A DNA stretch of 64,000 bases from Alistipes sp. (GCA_017624955.1 JAGAMA010000042.1:30318-94317); one strand, 5' to 3'. Positions 3,275 through 32,166 are shown, numbered from the stretch's first letter. The notes: a model not told the origin generated them from the sequence alone. Numbers and translations: made by a program.

Positions 3275-5530
3275 TTAGAATTTCAGTCCGTTAAATGTTG
3301 CGTCAATTACAAGTTTTTCGGCCTTCGTGAGGTCCATCTGGTCGGTATGCTGCGGATCAACATCGGGGTAGAGACTGATCTCGGCACCCTCCTTGACGTA
3401 GAGCGGCATGCGCTCCAGGGGGCACTCCACACCCTTGAGCCAACGGCCACCCTCGAAGCGTTCGCCCGTGAAGAAATCAACCCAGCGGCCCTCAGGGAGA
3501 TAAACATCGCGCTTATCCTCGCTGTTCATCACGGGGGCCACGAGGAACTCCGAGCCGAAGTAGTACTCGTCGTCGATGTGCCATACCTGGCGGTCGTCGG
3601 GGTGGTGCATCAGAAGGGCACGCACCATCGGATAACCCGTCTCGGTCGAGCGGCGGGCCTCCTCCACGATGTAGGGCATCAGGCGGTAGCGCAGCTTCCA
3701 CCAACGCTTCACGAGCGGAGCGATCGCAGGGTAGTGCCACGGCTCACGCTTGAACGACCCGTGGTAGCGCATGTGCGAGGTGAAGACACCGAACTGCGTC
3801 CAGCGCATGTAGACCTTCTCGTCGAGGGGCGAGTTCATGAAGTTGGGCAGCGAGTGGAAGCCCGGCACATCGTGGCTCCAGAAGCCGAAGCCCGAAAGAC
3901 CGAAGTGCAGACCACCCTTCACCGAACCGGCCATGCCGTCCCAGGTCGAGGCCGAGTCACCGCCCCAATGCAGGGGGTAGCGTTGACAGCCTGCCCAGGC
4001 CGAGCGGGCCCAGACGATGCCGTCGCCCGTCACCTCCTTCGTAATCTCGTAGGCGGCCTTCTGATAGAGCAGGGCGTAGAGGTTGTTCAGCTCCTCGGGG
4101 CTCATGGCGTAGTAGTCGGCATCCATGTGGATATTCTCGCCAAAGTCGGTCTTGATGCAGACCACACCCATATCCAACAGCTCCTTCAGGAGTCCCTTGT
4201 ACCAGGCCGTAGCCTTCGGGTAGGTGAAGTCGATCGTGCCGGCATAATCCAGGGTCGAGAAGTTCGAGCCCTCGGCACGCTCCTGCTCCTTCGTCAGGGG
4301 TGCAATGTAGCGGTTCTCCTTCGCCTCGGTGATCTGCTCGGCACCCTCGGCGACATAGGGAAGCTGCCAGAGCGATACGCGGTAGCCATCCTCCTTCAAT
4401 CCCTTGAGGAAGCCCACGGGGTCGGGGAAACGCTCGGGGTTGAACTTCCACTCGCAGAGCCAATCGGTGCGGAACCAACCCGTGTCGAGGTGGATCACAT
4501 CGCAGGGGTACTTCTCACGGCGCAGGCGGTCGCAAATCTCCTGCACCTCGTCGGCCGAGAAGTAGGTCATGCGGCTCATCCAGATACCGAAGCTCCAGAG
4601 CGGGGGCAGCGACGGGAAGCCCGTCAGCGTGCGGTAGTTGTAGAGGATGCGCTCGGGCGACGAACCACCGATGAGGTAGGCATCCACCACGGGGGCTTCG
4701 TTGAGGAACTGCACCGAGCGGGTCGAGTGGTCGGCCAACGAGAGCTTGCAGTAGCGGCTCGTGTGGTAGAAGACACCATACAGGCGGCTCGAGAGGTAGA
4801 AGGGGATATTCTTGTAGGCACGGCGGTTGTTCACGCCCTGACCATCCTGGTTCTTGAGGTAGAAGGTGTGACCCGAGAGGTCCATCTTCGTAAAGCGCTC
4901 TCCCGTACCGGCAAAGCACTCGTCGTGCTTACACTCGAACGAGAGGGTGGCGCGATCCACCTTGCCCTCCGTCTCGCAGTAGGCCAGCGGCAGGGCATCG
5001 TAGCGCGGGGGCGAGAAGTGGTCGTAGGCCGAGAGGCGCACGGGCTTCTCCTTCACACCGTCGGGGTAGATCGTAAGGTCGATCGTGGGCTGCGGAGCAG
5101 GTTGCAGGTCGCTCCAGAAGTCGATCACGGCCTCCTTCAGGTTCAGCTCGCCACGGAGCTTTCCGTTTGCATCGTGGAACTGCCACACATCGTCGGCCAA
5201 GGTGGCCGTGAGGGGCAGCTTTTTGACCGAGGGGGCATACGCGAGCATCTCGCTTTCGTCACTCGGCGCTTGGCCTTCGGTCGAGAGGAAGAGGCGCACG
5301 ATCTCCTCGCCATAGGCGCGCAGGATGAGCGTGTGGCTGACCTGCTCACACTGCGTGTCGGCTGCCATGTCGGCCGCCTTGAGCTGCTTCTGGAAGGGCA
5401 CCGTGATATGGATGTCGCCCTCGACGGCCTCGACCGAGGTGGGCTTGTAGGCTTTCCAAAGGGCCTCGTCACGCTGTAGGTCGGTGTCGAAGTCCAGGAA
5501 ATCAAAAAGGTGGTAATTGGTCTGTTTCAC
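3275..5530 (-). CDS. glycoside hydrolase family 31 (alpha-xylosidase/alpha-glucosidase, YicI-like), cytoplasmic
   Basis: 751 aa with no signal peptide. GH31 signature regions are present: IHLDTGWF, VCIKTDFGE (nucleophile region) and HWGGDSASTWDG. Confidence 0.9.
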   Translation of the reverse strand: MKQTNYHLFDFLDFDTDLQRDEALWKAYKPTSVEAVEGDIHITVPFQKQLKAADMAADTQCEQVSHTLILRAYGEEIVRLFLSTEGQAPSDESEMLAYAPSVKKLPLTATLADDVWQFHDANGKLRGELNLKEAVIDFWSDLQPAPQPTIDLTIYPDGVKEKPVRLSAYDHFSPPRYDALPLAYCETEGKVDRATLSFECKHDECFAGTGERFTKMDLSGHTFYLKNQDGQGVNNRRAYKNIPFYLSSRLYGVFYHTSRYCKLSLADHSTRSVQFLNEAPVVDAYLIGGSSPERILYNYRTLTGFPSLPPLWSFGIWMSRMTYFSADEVQEICDRLRREKYPCDVIHLDTGWFRTDWLCEWKFNPERFPDPVGFLKGLKEDGYRVSLWQLPYVAEGAEQITEAKENRYIAPLTKEQERAEGSNFSTLDYAGTIDFTYPKATAWYKGLLKELLDMGVVCIKTDFGENIHMDADYYAMSPEELNNLYALLYQKAAYEITKEVTGDGIVWARSAWAGCQRYPLHWGGDSASTWDGMAGSVKGGLHFGLSGFGFWSHDVPGFHSLPNFMNSPLDEKVYMRWTQFGVFTSHMRYHGSFKREPWHYPAIAPLVKRWWKLRYRLMPYIVEEARRSTETGYPMVRALLMHHPDDRQVWHIDDEYYFGSEFLVAPVMNSEDKRDVYLPEGRWVDFFTGERFEGGRWLKGVECPLERMPLYVKEGAEISLYPDVDPQHTDQMDLTKAEKLVIDATFNGLKF

Positions 5531-7420: not shown

Positions 7421-7460
7421 AATGAATTAAGAATTAAAAATTAAAATTAAGAATTAAAGG
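7421..7460 (-). repeat. AT-rich TTAA-repeat tract (reverse orientation), part of the promoter cassette
   Basis: aatgaattaagaattaaaaattaaaattaagaattaaagg is the reverse complement of the ttaatttttaattcttaatt-type tracts at 8547-8584, 12210-12248 and 26241-26274. Confidence 0.8.
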
Positions 7461-7550
7461 GAGCTAAGGGGGACTAAAGAAAATTAAGGGGGGGGCTAAC
7501 GCACCCCCCCCCTCCTTAGCAACCTTTAGCAACCTTTAGCAACCTTTAAT
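7455..7550. repeat. imperfect long hairpin built from CTAAAGG-type units around a G8/C9 core
   Basis: The left arm carries gctaaggg, actaaag and attaagg. The centre is G8-ctaacgca-C9. The right arm carries ccttagc and three copies of cctttagc. Related tracts lie at 11963-11992 and 46318-46366. Confidence 0.75.
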
Positions 7551-7586: not shown

Positions 7587-7674
7587 CTTCCCACCCTCTC
7601 TCTCTTCTCCTGTCACAAGTGTCACAGGTGTCACAGGTGTCACAAGTGTCACGCCCTGTGACACTGTGACACTG
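7587..7674. repeat. polypyrimidine + (GTCAC)n-GCCC-(GTGAC)n module, left copy of an inverted pair
   Basis: A 28-nt exact match (ctcctgtcacaagtgtcacaggtgtcac) to the reverse complement of 8177-8268. It is itself a hairpin centred on gccc. Confidence 0.85.
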
Positions 7675-8045
7675 CGGCACGAGCAGAAAGTACAACCATT
7701 GAACTTTTGCATGCCTTACGGCTCACACCCACGATCGGTCGTGGGCAAGCACTGCTGCCTGGTCGCATCGTGCTGCATGTGCTTATATAAGAACTAATAT
7801 ATATAAATATTATTTATAATTATTAGGTGTGTATAGGCTTCGCTATCGACTCACCCTATTAGACTTACGGCAAGCACGGTTGCCTTGGGTAACTACGCGA
7901 CAAGTCGGTGTCGTAGTGCGTAGGCTGTCGTGTTGTGCCGTATGTAGTGTGTAGGGTAGCGTGTTGTGTGGTGGGTGAAACCACGGCCACGCTATCGTAC
8001 AATTATTGAACCTGCTTGTGGAGCGGTTTGGGTAGCTCCGAGGGA

Positions 8046-8110
8046 GTAACCAAGTAACATAGTAACATTGTAACAGGGGGTGTACCCGTGTTACTGTGTT
8101 ACGATGTTAC
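8046..8110. repeat. hairpin built from GTAACA units
   Basis: gtaaccaagtaacatagtaacattgtaaca - gggggtgtacccg - tgttactgtgttacgatgttac. Confidence 0.75.
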
Positions 8111-8176
8111 GAAAGAGGACTGGGCCCACTGGGGCTACTGAGGCCACTGGGCCAACTGAATAATTCTTAATTCCAG

Positions 8177-8268
8177 GGTGTCACACTGTCACACTGTCAC
8201 AGGGCGTGACACCTGTGACACTTGTGACAGGAGAGGAAAGAGGAGAGAGCGAAGAGAAAAGAAAAGAG
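8177..8268. repeat. (GTCAC)n-GGGC-(GTGAC)n + polypurine module, right (inverted) copy
   Basis: Its reverse complement aligns with 7587-7674. Two 9-nt units present in the left copy are missing here. Confidence 0.85.
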
Positions 8269-8325
8269 TTGAACGTTATGAGCAACGACCTCATTAGCAC
8301 CACCAGCGGAGCTGTAGCGACTAAG

Positions 8326-8363
8326 CCTCCCTTATCAAAGGGAGGTTTGGAGGGATTGTCTAT
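8326..8363 (+). repeat. S2 module, short form
   Basis: cctcccttatcaaagggaggtttggagggattgtctat. It has the same ends as the long form at 25917-26031 but lacks the ~80-nt interior. Confidence 0.8.
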
Positions 8364-8406
8364 ATCTCTTTCTTAAATAATTACTAATTACGCATACTTC
8401 TCGTCT

Positions 8407-8519
8407 CAGCCTTTTGAGGCCACCGCAGGTGGCTTTGAAAACGAGTAGCCACCGCCAAGCTCGCTTGGAGGGTGGCTGCACGTTTACAAAACAATTGCCC
8501 ATAGGCAACCAAAAGGCTG
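8407..8519 (+). repeat. S1 four-helix structured module, copy 1
   Basis: The closing stem cagcctttt/aaaaggctg encloses three hairpins. It is homologous to 26077-26194, with the structure conserved despite sequence divergence. Confidence 0.8.
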
Positions 8520-8546
8520 CAAAGGCCAAACGCCACGCCCACCCCA

Positions 8547-8584
8547 CAATTCTTAATTTTTAATTTTTAATTCTTAATTTTTCT
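8547..8584 (+). repeat. AT-rich TTAA-repeat tract, part of the promoter cassette
   Basis: caattcttaatttttaatttttaattcttaattttt. Confidence 0.8.
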
Positions 8585-8587
8585 TTT

Positions 8588-8595
8588 TATATTTG
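8588..8595 (+). promoter_or_regulatory. -7 box (TATATTTG) for the corrinoid operon
   Basis: Exact TAnnTTTG match 42 nt upstream of ATG 8637, preceded by a TTAA-repeat tract. Confidence 0.5.
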
Positions 8596-11131: not shown

Positions 11132-11219
11132 GGAGAGGTGGGTGAGTGGCTGAAACCACCGGTTTGCTAAACCGACGTACCTGATTAGGGTACCACGAGT
11201 TCGAATCTCGTCCTCTCCG
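11132..11219 (+). tRNA. tRNA-Ser (anticodon GCU), type II with long variable arm
   Basis: Folded by hand. Acceptor GGAGAGG/CCTCTCC; 3-bp D stem with a GG loop; anticodon loop TTGCTAA. Variable arm GTACC-tgattag-GGTAC. T arm ACGAG-TTCGAAT-CTCGT. Discriminator G; no encoded CCA. Confidence 0.9.
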
Positions 11220-11246
11220 CAAAAGGGCAAACGCCCCGGCGAACGA

Positions 11247-11369: not shown

Positions 11370-11509
11370 TGCAAGGATGCCTCCGGCAGGAAAGAGAAAG
11401 GGCTCGCTTTAGCGAGGCCAATTTCGTCCTCTCCACCCTTCGATAAAGGGCATCCTTGCAAAAAGCAACCCTTTTGCGGAGAAGGACATAGACAATCCCC
11501 CTAAATCCC
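11370..11509 (+). repeat. M3 module, tandem copy 1 (~140 nt)
   Basis: tgcaaggatgcctccggcagg...gggcatccttgca...cttttgcggagaaggacatagacaatccc. Nearly identical to 11690-11819; I count two substitutions and one A-position shift. Confidence 0.85.
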
Positions 11510-11689
11510 CCTTTGATAAGGGGGACTTCAAACTTGCGGACCCCGCGGGAGCGCAGAGAAAGGCGTAGCGAAGCAGGCTTGCCTGCGCAGCAGCCAATCT
11601 CGTCCGAAGAGTCCGCTTCAACAAACCGTTGGCGGAGAGAACTCCTACAATCCACCCCAACCCCTCCTTTGATAAGGAGGGGCTTGAGA

Positions 11690-11819
11690 TGCAAGGATGC
11701 CTCCGGCAGGAAAGAGAAAGGGCTCGCTTTAGCGAGGCCAATTTCGTCCTCTCCGCCCTTCGACAAAGGGCATCCTTGCAAAAGCAAACCCTTTTGCGGA
11801 GAAGGACATAGACAATCCC
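11690..11819 (+). repeat. M3 module, tandem copy 2
   Basis: See 11370-11509. Confidence 0.85.
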
Positions 11820-11925
11820 TCCAAACCTCCCTTTACGGCGATAAATCGCCGTGACTGCTTGCGCGCCTCGGTAAAGTCTGCAAGCAGCCTCTACACTCGG
11901 CTGTTGCAGCAGTTGATAAGGAGGG
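11807..11925 (-). repeat. S2 module, long form (reverse orientation)
   Basis: Its reverse complement aligns end to end with 25917-26031. A short form in the same orientation lies at 11497-11525. Confidence 0.8.
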
Positions 11926-12004
11926 GCTTGCAATGCGGACCCCGCGGGAGCGCAGAGAAAGGCAACTAAAGGTTGCTAAGGGTTGCTAAAGGTCATCGGG
12001 CTTT

Positions 12005-12094
12005 GGGGCTGAGGCCACTGCGCCCACTGCGCCTACTGGGGCTACTGAAAAAAGTCAGTCGCCCCAGCTGCCCCAGTGGGCCCAGTAGGCCCAG
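12005..12094. repeat. hairpin built from GGCCCACTG-type units
   Basis: ggggctgaggccactgcgcccactgcgcctactggggctactg - aaaaaagt - cagtcgccccagctgccccagtgggcccagtaggcccag. A related one-armed tract lies at 8120-8157. Confidence 0.75.
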
Positions 12095-12137
12095 ACTCAT
12101 GACCCGCCGACCGTCAGCCACCTTCCAACCCCCTCTC

Positions 12138-12201: not shown

Positions 12202-12209
12202 CCCCTCCC

Positions 12210-12248
12210 TTAATTTTTAATTCATAATTTTTAATTCTTAATTCTTTT
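12210..12248 (+). repeat. AT-rich TTAA-repeat tract, part of the promoter cassette
   Basis: ttaatttttaattcataatttttaattcttaattctttt. Confidence 0.8.
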
Positions 12249-25732: not shown

Positions 25733-25788
25733 AAATTTAGCATTTAGAATTCAAAATTTAGAATTAGGGATTCTAAAATTAGAGCTAT

Positions 25789-25832
25789 AAGGCCTATGGG
25801 ACCTATGTGTCCTATGGGCCTTATATTTTTTT
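25789..25832 (+). terminator. Rho-independent terminator of the pectin operon
   Basis: A 14-bp stem (AAGGCCTATGGGAC...GTCCTATGGGCCTT) followed by ATATTTTTTT. Confidence 0.75.
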
Positions 25833-25916
25833 GTATTGGTGTTCATCTGTCTTTTTGATTTCAACGGAAATCCACAACGATTATTAGCATTACCCAAGGA
25901 GCTTTAGCGACTAAGT

Positions 25917-26031
25917 CCCCCTTATCAACTGCTGCAACAGCCGAGTGCAGAGGTCGCTTGCGAACCTATGCCGAGGCGCGCAAGCAGTCACGGCAAATTG
26001 CCGTAAAGGGGGATTTAGGGGGATTGTCTAT
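25917..26031 (+). repeat. S2 module, long form
   Basis: cccccttatcaa...three internal hairpins...gtaaagggggatttagggggattgtctat. Confidence 0.8.
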
Positions 26032-26076
26032 ATTTTTTTTATTTACAAGGAAAATTTACCTTAATCACTCCGCTTT

Positions 26077-26194
26077 CAGCCTTTTGTGCCACTGAAGGTG
26101 GCATTGAAAATGATTTACTCCGCCTCTGAGCTTGCTCGGAAAGGCGAAGTAAATTGTTTTCAAATCAGTTGCCAAGCAGGCAACCAAAAGGCTG
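26077..26194 (+). repeat. S1 four-helix structured module, copy 2
   Basis: See 8407-8519. Confidence 0.8.
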
Positions 26195-26240
26195 CGCCAT
26201 GAAGCTCTGCGATGTGCCCTTTTCACACTTTTGTAGGCAT

Positions 26241-26274
26241 AATTTTTAATTTTTAATTTTTAATCGCTAATTTT
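26241..26274 (+). repeat. AT-rich TTAA-repeat tract, part of the promoter cassette
   Basis: aatttttaatttttaatttttaatcgctaatttt. Confidence 0.8.
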
Positions 26275-26275
26275 G
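26268..26275 (+). promoter_or_regulatory. -7 box (TAATTTTG) upstream of dnaG
   Basis: Exact TAnnTTTG match only 7 nt before ATG 26282. This implies a near-leaderless mRNA, or else a promoter further upstream. Confidence 0.35.
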
Positions 26276-30350: not shown

Positions 30351-30372
30351 GCGAACTGTTAATTGTTAATTT

Positions 30373-32166
30373 TTAATTCTCCTTCACCTCGCCCTTGACG
30401 AACTCGTAGACTGCCTTCTGTGTGCCGTCCTCGTTCCAATGGGTGGCAGGACCTTCGGCTACATAACCTACAAATTTGCGATCCAGGTCGCGGGGCGTAG
30501 GTTCGATGTTCCAATGCGACTCCACGCGCTTTTGGCCGTTGGGGTAGTACTGCGTCCATACGCCGCGCATCGTCTCCAGGTTGCGCTCCCAGCGCCAACG
30601 GAGCGTGCCGTCGGGGTTGTAGAAGAGCTCCTCACCCGTCTTGCGACCATGCTCATAAACGACCTGATGCTGCAGCGTGCCGTCGGCGTAGTAATCCTTC
30701 GTCGTGCCGTGCAGCAGGTAGCGACCATTGGGGTAGGTCATTGCCTCCCACTCGGCCTTAAGAGCGCCATTCGGGTACTTCTCCGAGTAGGCCTTCTGTT
30801 CGCCACCCTCCTTCGAGATCGTCACTTCGCCCTCGTCGGACCAGATCCATGCCTCGTTCAACTCATAGTGCAAGGCGGGGTAGTTGGCCGAGGTAAGAAT
30901 GTGAATCAGTCCGTTCGGAGCTTGGCGAACGGTCGAGTACCCGAGCGAGGGATGAGCCGTGCGGCGGTTGTGGGGGAGTGCCACGGGCAGCGATTTGATG
31001 CGCCACGTCTGGCCGTTGTCCTTCGAAATGGCAATCACGCACTTATCCTCGTTCTTCCAACCTTCGGGGGCGGGAATATCCTTTTTGAGCATGTAGGAGT
31101 CGGTGATGTAAACCAGGTTGCCCGACTGGAGACGGATGATCGAGGGACGTTGTGCGCTACCCAGCGGCGGGAAGGGCGAGGGGGTTGCCTCCTCCCAGGT
31201 TGCACCCCAGTCGCGCGAGATATTTTGCGGTGTCCAACCCTCCACATCGGCATTCTTGCCACCAATCGAGAGCAGCGTGCCTTGCTCGTCGAGCGGAACA
31301 ATGGTCGAGTGGCGACCCAACGTGCGGCCACCCATATCCTCCCACGTTACGCCCTCGTCTTGGCTGCGCCAGAGGAAGCTGTTGCTGTCGTCGGCATCCA
31401 TCGCCATATAGATATTGCCGGCCGGATCGCGGAAGGCGCTGTTGATCGGCTGAGCCGTGAAGTCCGTAGCGGCGGTGTCGAGCTGCGGGATCGCGTAGGT
31501 CCAGGTAGCACCGTTATCCTCCGAGGTGGCGATGCGGAAGGGGACGTAGTTCGACATGTAGCGACCGCCACCGAAGAACCAGATCTTACCGTTATCGTTC
31601 CAGAGGAGTCCGGACTGGTCGTTACCGAGTTTCGTATCGTAGAAGAGTTCGGGCATATCCCACTCCTCGGCACCAAAGCGCAGACGAGCCTGCACGAAGG
31701 TAGCCATCGTGTCGCTCTCGCTGCGACCACGGGGCGAGCTGAAGTAGATAGCCAGGGCATCGCCGTTGGGCATCACCTCAAAGCCCGGAGAGTGGCAGTG
31801 ATGGAACACGCCGTAATCCAGGCCGGCCATCTCGCCCTGCTCGGTCGGCGTGTAGGAGGCCGGAATCGGGAGCGTGAAGCGCACCGTGAAGAAGGGCTCG
31901 TCGGCTACGGGACCCTGCTTCGCCTCGTCGGTCGATTGTCTTACGGCCGACTGCGTGAAGGGCACCGTCTCGCGCTCCTTGAGTACATAGTGAATCACAT
32001 TGGCCGAATCGCCCAGCGCGGCCATCTCCTCTCCGGCCTTGAATTGCGATGCTACGACGTAGAGCGTGTCCTGATCCAGGTGCGCCCATGCCTTTTTCTG
32101 CTGCGTGGAGCATGCGCTAAGCAATGCCACCACGGCTGCTACGAGTAGTAGAGTTCGTTTCATCAT
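30373..32166 (-). CDS. lipoprotein: BNR/Asp-box sialidase-like beta-propeller fused to C-terminal MORN/YwqK-type repeats
   Basis: Start at ATGATG 32166 gives MMKRTLLLVAAVVALLSAC. Four Asp-boxes: SEDNGATW, SQDEGVTW, SRDWGATW and SKDNGQTW. The C-terminus has repeated YPNG/YADG/NPDG...G motifs. Confidence 0.8.
   Translation of the reverse strand: MMKRTLLLVAAVVALLSACSTQQKKAWAHLDQDTLYVVASQFKAGEEMAALGDSANVIHYVLKERETVPFTQSAVRQSTDEAKQGPVADEPFFTVRFTLPIPASYTPTEQGEMAGLDYGVFHHCHSPGFEVMPNGDALAIYFSSPRGRSESDTMATFVQARLRFGAEEWDMPELFYDTKLGNDQSGLLWNDNGKIWFFGGGRYMSNYVPFRIATSEDNGATWTYAIPQLDTAATDFTAQPINSAFRDPAGNIYMAMDADDSNSFLWRSQDEGVTWEDMGGRTLGRHSTIVPLDEQGTLLSIGGKNADVEGWTPQNISRDWGATWEEATPSPFPPLGSAQRPSIIRLQSGNLVYITDSYMLKKDIPAPEGWKNEDKCVIAISKDNGQTWRIKSLPVALPHNRRTAHPSLGYSTVRQAPNGLIHILTSANYPALHYELNEAWIWSDEGEVTISKEGGEQKAYSEKYPNGALKAEWEAMTYPNGRYLLHGTTKDYYADGTLQHQVVYEHGRKTGEELFYNPDGTLRWRWERNLETMRGVWTQYYPNGQKRVESHWNIEPTPRDLDRKFVGYVAEGPATHWNEDGTQKAVYEFVKGEVKEN

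Follow-up and report, generated by a model that had tools for sequence, protein, structure and literature searches.

S1, a covarying four-way-junction motif in accessory intergenic cassettes of Alistipes-like bacteria, and its putative function

We describe a small, previously uncatalogued structured motif, S1, which is well supported and absent from Rfam. S1 occurs twice in a 64,000-nt stretch of Alistipes sp. DNA (GCA_017624955.1 JAGAMA010000042.1:30318-94317, hereafter the window), and it forms the structured core of an accessory cassette, non-coding and ~300 nt long, that is specific to the Rikenellaceae (Alistipes-like bacteria) and present in low copy number. S1 cassettes are kept at some orthologous sites across species, and between strains they come and go or give way to other palindromic cassettes. 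The motif is solid, its covariation is real and its population behavior is unusual; its function is putative. S1 marks accessory intergenic cassettes in a group of gut bacteria with almost no described non-coding elements. In this group, near relatives swap entire structured cassettes in the intervals between identical genes, and one such cassette has long been under purifying selection where sites are orthologous. Taken together, these two facts speak for a role of intergenic secondary structure at the level of the host, for which the candidates are 3′ end protection, insulation or a function at the level of DNA.

The initial annotation of the window placed two copies of a four-helix element on the plus strand, and both their coordinates and their sequences are exact. 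Copy A (8407-8519) is a 113-nt four-way junction with a minimum free energy (MFE) of −60.8 kcal/mol and a z-score of −7.7, and it scores 99 bits with our covariance model R1. Copy B (26077-26194) is a 118-nt four-way junction with an MFE of −61.0 kcal/mol and a z-score of −8.8, and it scores 109 bits with a covariance model. The z-scores compare the MFE with those of dinucleotide-preserving shuffles. In the MFE fold, both copies consist of a 10-bp closing stem around three hairpins. For copy A, helix 1 is CAGCCTTTTG/CAAAAGGCTG, helix 2 is GGCCACC/GGTGGCT, helix 3 is a long variable hairpin, and helix 4 is TTGCC/GGCAA. The closing stem is identical in both copies, as had been noticed: the pattern CAGCCTTTTG-N80-110-CCAAAAGGCTG matches the window twice, at copies A and B, versus no match in 100 shuffled windows. 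The closing pair of helix 2 indeed changes from G.T in copy A to T-A in copy B, and helix 4 is kept in both with different loops. As for helix 3, it was correctly described as differing in sequence while keeping its pairing, but at ~25 bp the hairpin is longer than the initial annotation had it. Both copies do lie upstream of promoter boxes, the 3′ edge of copy A being 69 nt from the TATATTTG box of the corrinoid-protein gene (8588-8595), and that of copy B 74 nt from the TAATTTTG box of dnaG (26268-26275). What had been missed is the larger composite repeat to which S1 belongs, and the usual setting of S1, which adjoins the 3′ end of a convergent gene rather than standing upstream of promoters. 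The homology between the two window copies extends beyond S1 by ~100 nt upstream (179 nt in copy B, including a 79-nt insert) and by ~35 nt downstream.

The proposal that selection acts on the structure, made from the two window copies, holds in a larger set for which covariance models were built. In a model-guided alignment of 15 S1 copies, 96.4% of the cells are standard pairs, and 14 pairs (48 cells) carry double-sided changes. None of 500 column shuffles reaches any of the observed pairing measures, and in a control in which the 3′ partners are slid by 1-3 columns, the paired cells fall to 34-55%. The loops and junction residues vary freely, and the invariant positions sit in helices. Helix 1 calls for more care: it was fixed by the search patterns that produced the main set, so its invariance in that set is uninformative. 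A divergent copy (L174:1588-1701) was found without constraining helix 1, and it has two compensated pairs in that helix, three or more in helix 2 and two in helix 4, while the sequence of its helix 3 is almost wholly different. This copy folds to the same junction (−66 kcal/mol), and the two-purine bulge on the 3′ arm of helix 3 is conserved. With compensation present in all four helices when this copy is included, the comparison shows that the S1 fold exists and that all four helices are under selection. The L174 copy adjoins a GNAT gene orthologous (68% amino acid identity) to the GNAT gene beside the L016 copy, and therefore the pair looks like a single site at which the fold has been retained while the sequence drifted.

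Orthologous copies provide a second view. Downstream of rmuC, the S1 copies of L015 and L023 are identical at 118/118 positions (100%) where the adjacent coding sequence is 93% identical, and those of L015 and L072 agree at 114/118 positions (96.6%) next to coding sequence at 86-89%. Downstream of mdh, L020 and L026 agree at 117/119 positions (98.3%), with adjacent coding sequence at 87-92%. These identities of 97-100%, versus 86-93% in the adjacent genes, show that orthologous S1 copies are under purifying selection. The differences between L015 and L072 and between L020 and L026 are confined to loops, junction residues and the helix 3 bulge. The spacer and the module that precede S1 in the composite are conserved to a similar degree; upstream of the composite, identity is 71-77% at the rmuC locus (L015/L023/L072) and 92% at the mdh locus (L020/L026). 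Within the window's species, the S1 copy at the dnaG locus scores 109 bits in all four carrier strains with no sequence differences by eye, and the dnaG gene itself diverges by 1.4-1.7%, all of it synonymous.

The search for further copies returned a family of at least 15 distinct members of 113-125 nt, every one of them from Rikenellaceae/Alistipes genomes or gut metagenomes. A scan with the closing-stem pattern over one genome per species gave 30 loci, a third of which (10/30) are true S1 relatives; all 10 belong to Rikenellaceae/Alistipes metagenome-assembled genomes, with up to four copies in one genome, and exact-stem copies number one to four per representative genome. A metagenome scan used the 5′ arm plus helix 2 as its pattern, which is too loose, and yielded two true gut-metagenome copies among the 80 matches listed. 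Two divergent copies were found in a more distant Rikenellaceae genome (L174) by way of its rmuC neighborhood. Two covariance models, the second of which took in the divergent copies, identified no extra members in the window and 376 kb of related sequence, and therefore the family is sparse. A marginal model match in L162 was rejected as terminator-like, and the single match of a viral scan as a coincidence inside a coding sequence. A BLAST search of the composite against phages and plasmids matched the module alone and left S1 unmatched. Against Rfam 15, as the initial annotation had proposed, the whole window at the gathering threshold reports tRNA-Ser alone, and permissive scans of both S1 regions report chance-level matches far below threshold, so that S1 matches no family. 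We found no description of the element or of its strings in the literature searched.

S1 makes up the 3′ portion of a composite of ~300 nt, which is present in 13 of the 14 copies aligned, always with the same polarity. In order, the composite has a GGAGC-N-GCGACTAAG leader, a pyrimidine-purine-purine module (Y-R-R), an AT-rich spacer, S1 and a tail. The module consists of a pyrimidine run and, beyond a 4-nt loop, its purine complement; TTT separates the latter from a second purine run, and then comes TTGTCTATAT. The spacer is ~40 nt long, AT-rich and T-terminated, and the tail is ~35 nt long and semi-conserved. For copy A, the upstream module (8308-8365, plus strand) starts with GGAGCTGTAGCGACTAAG and continues with CCTCCCTT (8326-8333), the loop ATCA, AAGGGAGG (8338-8345), TTT, the mirror purine run GGAGGGA (8349-8355) and TTGTCTATAT. 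Its AT-rich spacer (8366-8406, plus strand) ends in a T-rich run that abuts the closing stem, and its tail (8520-8545, plus strand) begins with CAAAGGCCAAACGCC; a similar string, CAAAAGCCAAACGCC, follows an unrelated cassette, S2, on the minus strand near 11370. For copy B, the upstream module (25898-26033, plus strand) has GGAGCTTTAGCGACTAAG, TCCCCCTT (25916-25923), a loop with the 79-nt insert (~25929-26007), AAGGGGGA (26006-26013), TTT, AGGGGGA (26017-26023) and TTGTCTATAT. Its AT-rich spacer (26034-26076, plus strand) contains AAGGAAAATTTACCTTAA, and its tail (26195-26230, plus strand) is within a segment present or absent between strains. The 79-nt insert is itself structured and sits exactly in the hairpin loop of the module; at this locus it is found in L156, L161 and the window and is cleanly absent from L153 and L154. 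The same segment is also seen at 11835-11915 (minus strand) and in L016 and L028. Two further ideas about the composite were discarded. An outer stem enclosing all of it, predicted for copy B, is by eye not conserved in other copies; and the invariant 10-mer is found solely within S1, for which reason we rejected a DNA uptake sequence.

The module has an unusual pattern of variation. Across Rikenellaceae loci there are nine module classes, and from class to class all three runs change together. The second purine run mirrors the first, and is neither a direct nor an inverted copy of it. Examples, given as pyrimidine run, purine run and mirror run, are CCTCCCTT, AAGGGAGG and GGAGGGA; CCCTCCTT, AAGGAGGG and GGGAGGA; TCTCCCCTT, AAGGGGAGA and AGAGGGGA; and TCCCCCTT, AAGGGGGA and AGGGGGA. 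The mirror symmetry has 0-1 mismatches per 7-8 positions, and the mismatches are mostly A-to-T or opposite an interrupting C, with A/G in two classes. Large insertions are found in the first loop only. As a lead, an intramolecular triple helix would be expected to vary in just this way; it would be of the purine motif on this strand, or of the pyrimidine motif on the complement. The A-to-T variants fit a purine-motif triplex, which forms with DNA strands only. The three-strand covariation, if upheld, would offer comparative support, of a kind rarely available, for an intramolecular triple helix that forms naturally in bacteria.

The module is seen at further sites. It is present at L032:60-110 and L174:1495-1535, and on the minus strand of the window at 11486-11530, 11640-11690 and 11806-11930. 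These last belong to an array beside tRNA-Ser (11370-11990, minus strand) in which three Y-R-R modules alternate with S2 (twice) and another cassette, S3 (once). S2 (z −2.3) and S3 (z −0.6) are far less structured than S1. By this array, the module is shown to be a shared connector, and S1 to be one cassette type of several. The intergenic region that holds the array is 850-1250 nt long, depending on the strain. Outside the Rikenellaceae, the G5 version of the module (TCCCCCTT..AAGGGGGATTTAGGGGGA), for which mirror and direct repeats are indistinguishable, recurs, unannotated and between genes, on plasmids from Acinetobacter and numerous cyanobacteria (88-94% identity). The plasmid records with it number 25, including L181:1500-1545 (Acinetobacter NZ_CP090068.1) and L182:1498-1535 (Synechocystis NZ_CP054308.1). 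The Acinetobacter module starts 6 nt past a stop codon; TTTTT comes after it, and ~30 nt downstream there is a second copy, inverted and imperfect.

With respect to genes, the composite has a preferred setting. At 8 of the 12 independent loci, S1 turns its 3′ side towards a convergent gene whose stop codon is 8-84 nt away; on the module side, the distance to the neighbor is 150-600 nt. The convergent neighbors are unrelated housekeeping genes (rmuC, mdh, argH, mnmA, ribH, GNAT and a sialidase-like gene). Four loci, including both window copies, lie downstream of no gene on the opposite strand, and the window copies face promoters. In more distant species the rmuC locus has no S1, so that the site is not universally occupied. 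In L015 (~3650-3900 and 3400-3530), and likewise in L023, the composite is flanked by a ~75-85-nt direct duplication of the 3′ end of rmuC, including the stop codon; L072, from a third species, has the composite at the same rmuC site and lacks the duplication.

Conspecific contigs, obtained by looking up the DnaG and B12-binding proteins, have identical proteins and flanks at 96-98.6% nucleotide identity, and their intergenic regions differ by whole blocks. Between GH88 and dnaG, six strains (L152, L155, L157-L160) have no S1 and a plain terminator-like hairpin in a region of 153 or 161 nt, L153 and L154 have 470 nt with the composite, and L156, L161 and the window have 548-549 nt with the composite plus the 79-nt insert in the module loop. 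Between GH141 and the corrinoid operon, S1 is missing from regions of 506 nt (L162, L171), 976 nt (L168) and 1115 nt (L165, L167, L170), and present in those of ~1255 nt (L163, L164, L166, L169 and the window). What separates the strains is the replacement of blocks between short linkers that they share, rather than clean insertion with target duplication, and at the corrinoid locus a palindromic 9-mer array takes the position of S1 in some strains. S1 is thereby shown to be dispensable within the species, and therefore it is no essential regulator of dnaG or of the corrinoid operon.

The surroundings of S1 are repetitive in their own way. The intergenic regions of the window are mosaics of 9-nt tandem repeats in inverted arrays that form long hairpins, and the number of units depends on the strain. 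The arrays include GTGTCACAn at 7610-7679 and 8174-8231, ACTGGGSCC at 8119-8159 and ~12010-12110, GTAACAnnn at 8045-8115, and TTAGCAACC at 7517-7548 and ~11975-12005. Inside inverted GTGTCACA arrays lies a ~360-nt non-repetitive, non-coding block (7681-8040) with no Rfam match at the gathering threshold and no ORF of at least 100 aa; it is found in most strains and missing from L162 and L171. In L162, everything between two GTGTCACA arms is deleted, which leaves a short perfect hairpin. AT-rich repeats with a 7- or 14-nt period (TTAATTTTTAATT, TTCTAAATTTTGAA) stand upstream of TAnnTTTG boxes and after gene ends in this lineage (7425-7460, 8548-8588, 12205-12245, 25735-25780, 26241-26267 and 30354-30380). 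GH88 is followed by such AT-rich repeats and then by a terminator made of CCTATGGG repeats, including G.U pairs (25786-25825).

What does S1 do? Tentatively, and judging from sequence, we propose that S1 is a structural cassette similar to REP and ERIC elements, whose active form is a folded single strand, probably within transcripts that read past the 3′ ends of genes. S1 would work through its helices, as REP, ERIC or BOX do, and it would be carried by RNA that reads through from a neighboring gene. The very stable four-way junction could then serve as a nuclease-resistant 3′ structure or as a transcript insulator between transcription units. In most loci, the relevant RNA would be the reverse complement of the strand described in the initial annotation. 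In favor of this reading are, besides the stable fold, the covariation and the purifying selection, the convergent setting, the want of a canonical promoter of its own, the dispensability of S1, and the equal folding of both strands (mean MFE difference −0.8 ± 2.2 kcal/mol). By eye, the interval from the stop codon to S1 contains no hairpin-plus-T-run terminator in six convergent loci, and therefore the transcript of the convergent gene must run into the S1 reverse complement. On the other hand, the mdh locus (L020/L026) does have a hairpin with a T-run, by eye a terminator, in that interval, and the four loci with no upstream opposite-strand gene also count against read-through. The closing stem is not followed by a U-run on either strand (the T-run precedes the stem on the plus strand), so S1 is not a canonical terminator. 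On the plus strand, G.U states outnumber A.C states 13 to 5 (p ~0.1), a lean that is weak and opposite to the one predicted by read-through from the convergent gene. Moreover, the one to four exact-stem copies per representative genome, with none extra in 376 kb, fit poorly with a classical REP.

The equal folding of both strands would be natural if S1 were an element of the DNA itself, a palindrome that acts or spreads as a cruciform or as folded single-stranded DNA. Variants of this explanation are a non-autonomous mobile element, a structure-specific site of recombination or priming, a protein-binding or topological element, and a selfish palindrome; either selection on hairpins in the DNA or correction templated by a hairpin would then preserve the compensated stems. 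We regard this explanation as less likely than read-through RNA, yet as a serious rival, and it has several observations on its side. S1 lacks both a canonical promoter and a terminator, the same site in other strains holds palindromic cassettes of inverted 9-mer arrays, and the hairpin-tip deletion in L162 is typical of the instability of DNA palindromes. In addition, the linked module is a purine mirror repeat, an H-DNA or triplex motif whose A-to-T variants suit the purine motif, and the 79-nt segment in its loop is cleanly present or absent between strains. An element of the DNA fits less well with the rest: by eye, a target-site duplication is lacking and the closing stem is the sole terminal inverted repeat; transposases, integrases or reverse transcriptases are not consistently nearby; strains differ by replacement of blocks; the copy number is low; and orthologous copies have been conserved for long rather than decaying.

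Could S1, alone or with its module, be a gene in its own right? A family of stand-alone sRNAs on the plus strand, trans-acting or protein-binding, would account for the fixed internal polarity of the composite, for the asymmetric distances to the neighbors (150-600 nt on the 5′ side, 8-84 nt on the 3′ side, as for a gene with an upstream promoter), for the slight G.U excess, for an AT-rich spacer as conserved between orthologues as S1 is, and for a low copy number like that of sibling sRNA families. But just 1 of 14 copies has, in the 420 nt upstream, a canonical TAnnTTTG box of the kind that serves the genes of the window, and sigma-54 or ECF-type promoter readings of the spacer were rejected by eye as inconsistent across copies. 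The sequence upstream of the composite is poorly kept at the rmuC locus, and yet well kept at mdh. The absence of a promoter, of a terminator after S1 and of any conserved single-stranded region that might be a seed (the loops and junctions are all variable) makes a stand-alone sRNA less likely, as does its dispensability within the species, and we consider it improbable.

A bolder combination of the DNA-level ideas is that the whole composite is a folded single-strand DNA device, in which a purine-motif intramolecular triplex of the module and a cloverleaf of S1 would form on one strand and serve as a structure-specific recombination, priming or strand-exchange site for swapping non-coding cassettes among intergenic regions, like an attC site with no integron integrase. 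In a milder version, the other strand would act as RNA, where a pyrimidine-motif triple helix and S1 would together make a protective 3′ end of the mRNA. Either would be a long shot.

Last, a cis-regulatory 5′ leader, riboswitch or attenuator of the corrinoid operon and dnaG, which has in its favor the position upstream of those two window genes and nothing else, can be given practically no credence, in line with the initial annotation: the −7 boxes are downstream of S1, the element is missing from strains that encode identical DnaG and B12-binding proteins, elsewhere it faces the 3′ ends of unrelated, mostly convergent genes, and it has no Rfam match and no conserved unpaired nucleotides that would make a ligand or protein pocket.

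Having returned to a REP- or ERIC-like cassette as our preferred reading, we compare S1 with the systems that it resembles. A tRNA or tmRNA is readily set aside: ARAGORN reports in the window only tRNA-Ser (11132-11220), and unlike the tRNA cloverleaf S1 has a 10-bp closing stem, a ~25-bp hairpin and variable loops. Fremin and Bhatt 2021 (PMC8040213) report 250 palindromic candidate structures in human microbiomes that score on both strands. Several candidates of ~80-130 nt are confined to Bacteroidetes and interpreted as terminators or as REP-like, and most of the candidates are predicted intrinsic terminators, whereas S1 is not one. The closing-stem strings of S1 have no S1-like match in 200 of the 408 supplementary files of that study; CAAAAGGCUG, present in one of these files, lies inside a different motif and was rejected as S1.

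As to mobile elements, the 10-bp closing stem could serve as the terminal inverted repeats of a MITE, and L015 and L023 carry the 75-85-nt duplication; flanking direct repeats are unseen by eye, and, unlike with a classical MITE, a comparison of filled and empty sites finds strains that differ by replacement of a larger block, not by precise insertion. With integron attC sites and other recombination sites that work as a folded single strand, such as the attP of phage CTX, S1 shares the precedence of structure over sequence, a size in the range of ~60-140 nt, the folded single strand and the bracketing of exchangeable cassettes. It is unlike attC in having neither R and L boxes (GTTRRRY) nor the pattern of extrahelical bases, in the non-coding nature of the cassettes, and in forming a junction instead of a bulged hairpin. 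The closing stem is CAGCCTTTTG/CAAAAGGCTG instead of RYYYAAC/GTTRRRY, no integrase is adjacent, and the flanking genes are housekeeping genes.

Among the intergenic repeats of other bacteria, the S1 composite is like BOX of Streptococcus pneumoniae (boxA-boxB-boxC) in being modular, with a fixed order, a stable predicted structure, an intergenic location and a variable content of modules; BOX belongs to another phylum, has another sequence and more than 100 copies per genome, and lacks a multi-way junction or a mirror purine module. Like REP and BIME of E. coli and its relatives, S1 is an extragenic palindrome near the 3′ ends of genes, in mosaics with other motifs, and REP functions in either orientation as folded RNA that shields the upstream mRNA. 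REPs are single hairpins of 20-40 nt with hundreds of copies and ties to RAYT, whereas S1 has 115 nt, four helices and few copies per genome; no RAYT-like gene is seen in ~400 kb of context, and the Y1-transposase family is absent from the gene tables. A further likeness is to ERIC, or IRU, the ~127-bp imperfect palindromes of the Enterobacteriaceae. S1 resembles them in size (~115-125 nt), intergenic location, low to moderate copy number, conservation across species, presence or absence between strains, compensated stems and occurrence in either orientation relative to genes, and the optional internal insertions of ERIC are comparable to the 79-nt insert of the S1-linked module. ERIC is a single long hairpin of Proteobacteria without a mirror-repeat module, and S1 is a four-way junction found, in the scans made, in Rikenellaceae only, with zero sequence similarity to ERIC. 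S1 therefore has the features of an ERIC-like structured intergenic repeat by analogy only, without homology and with a different topology. Set apart from ERIC, REP and BOX by homology, topology, copy number and transposase, S1 belongs to none of them, and yet it behaves as they do.
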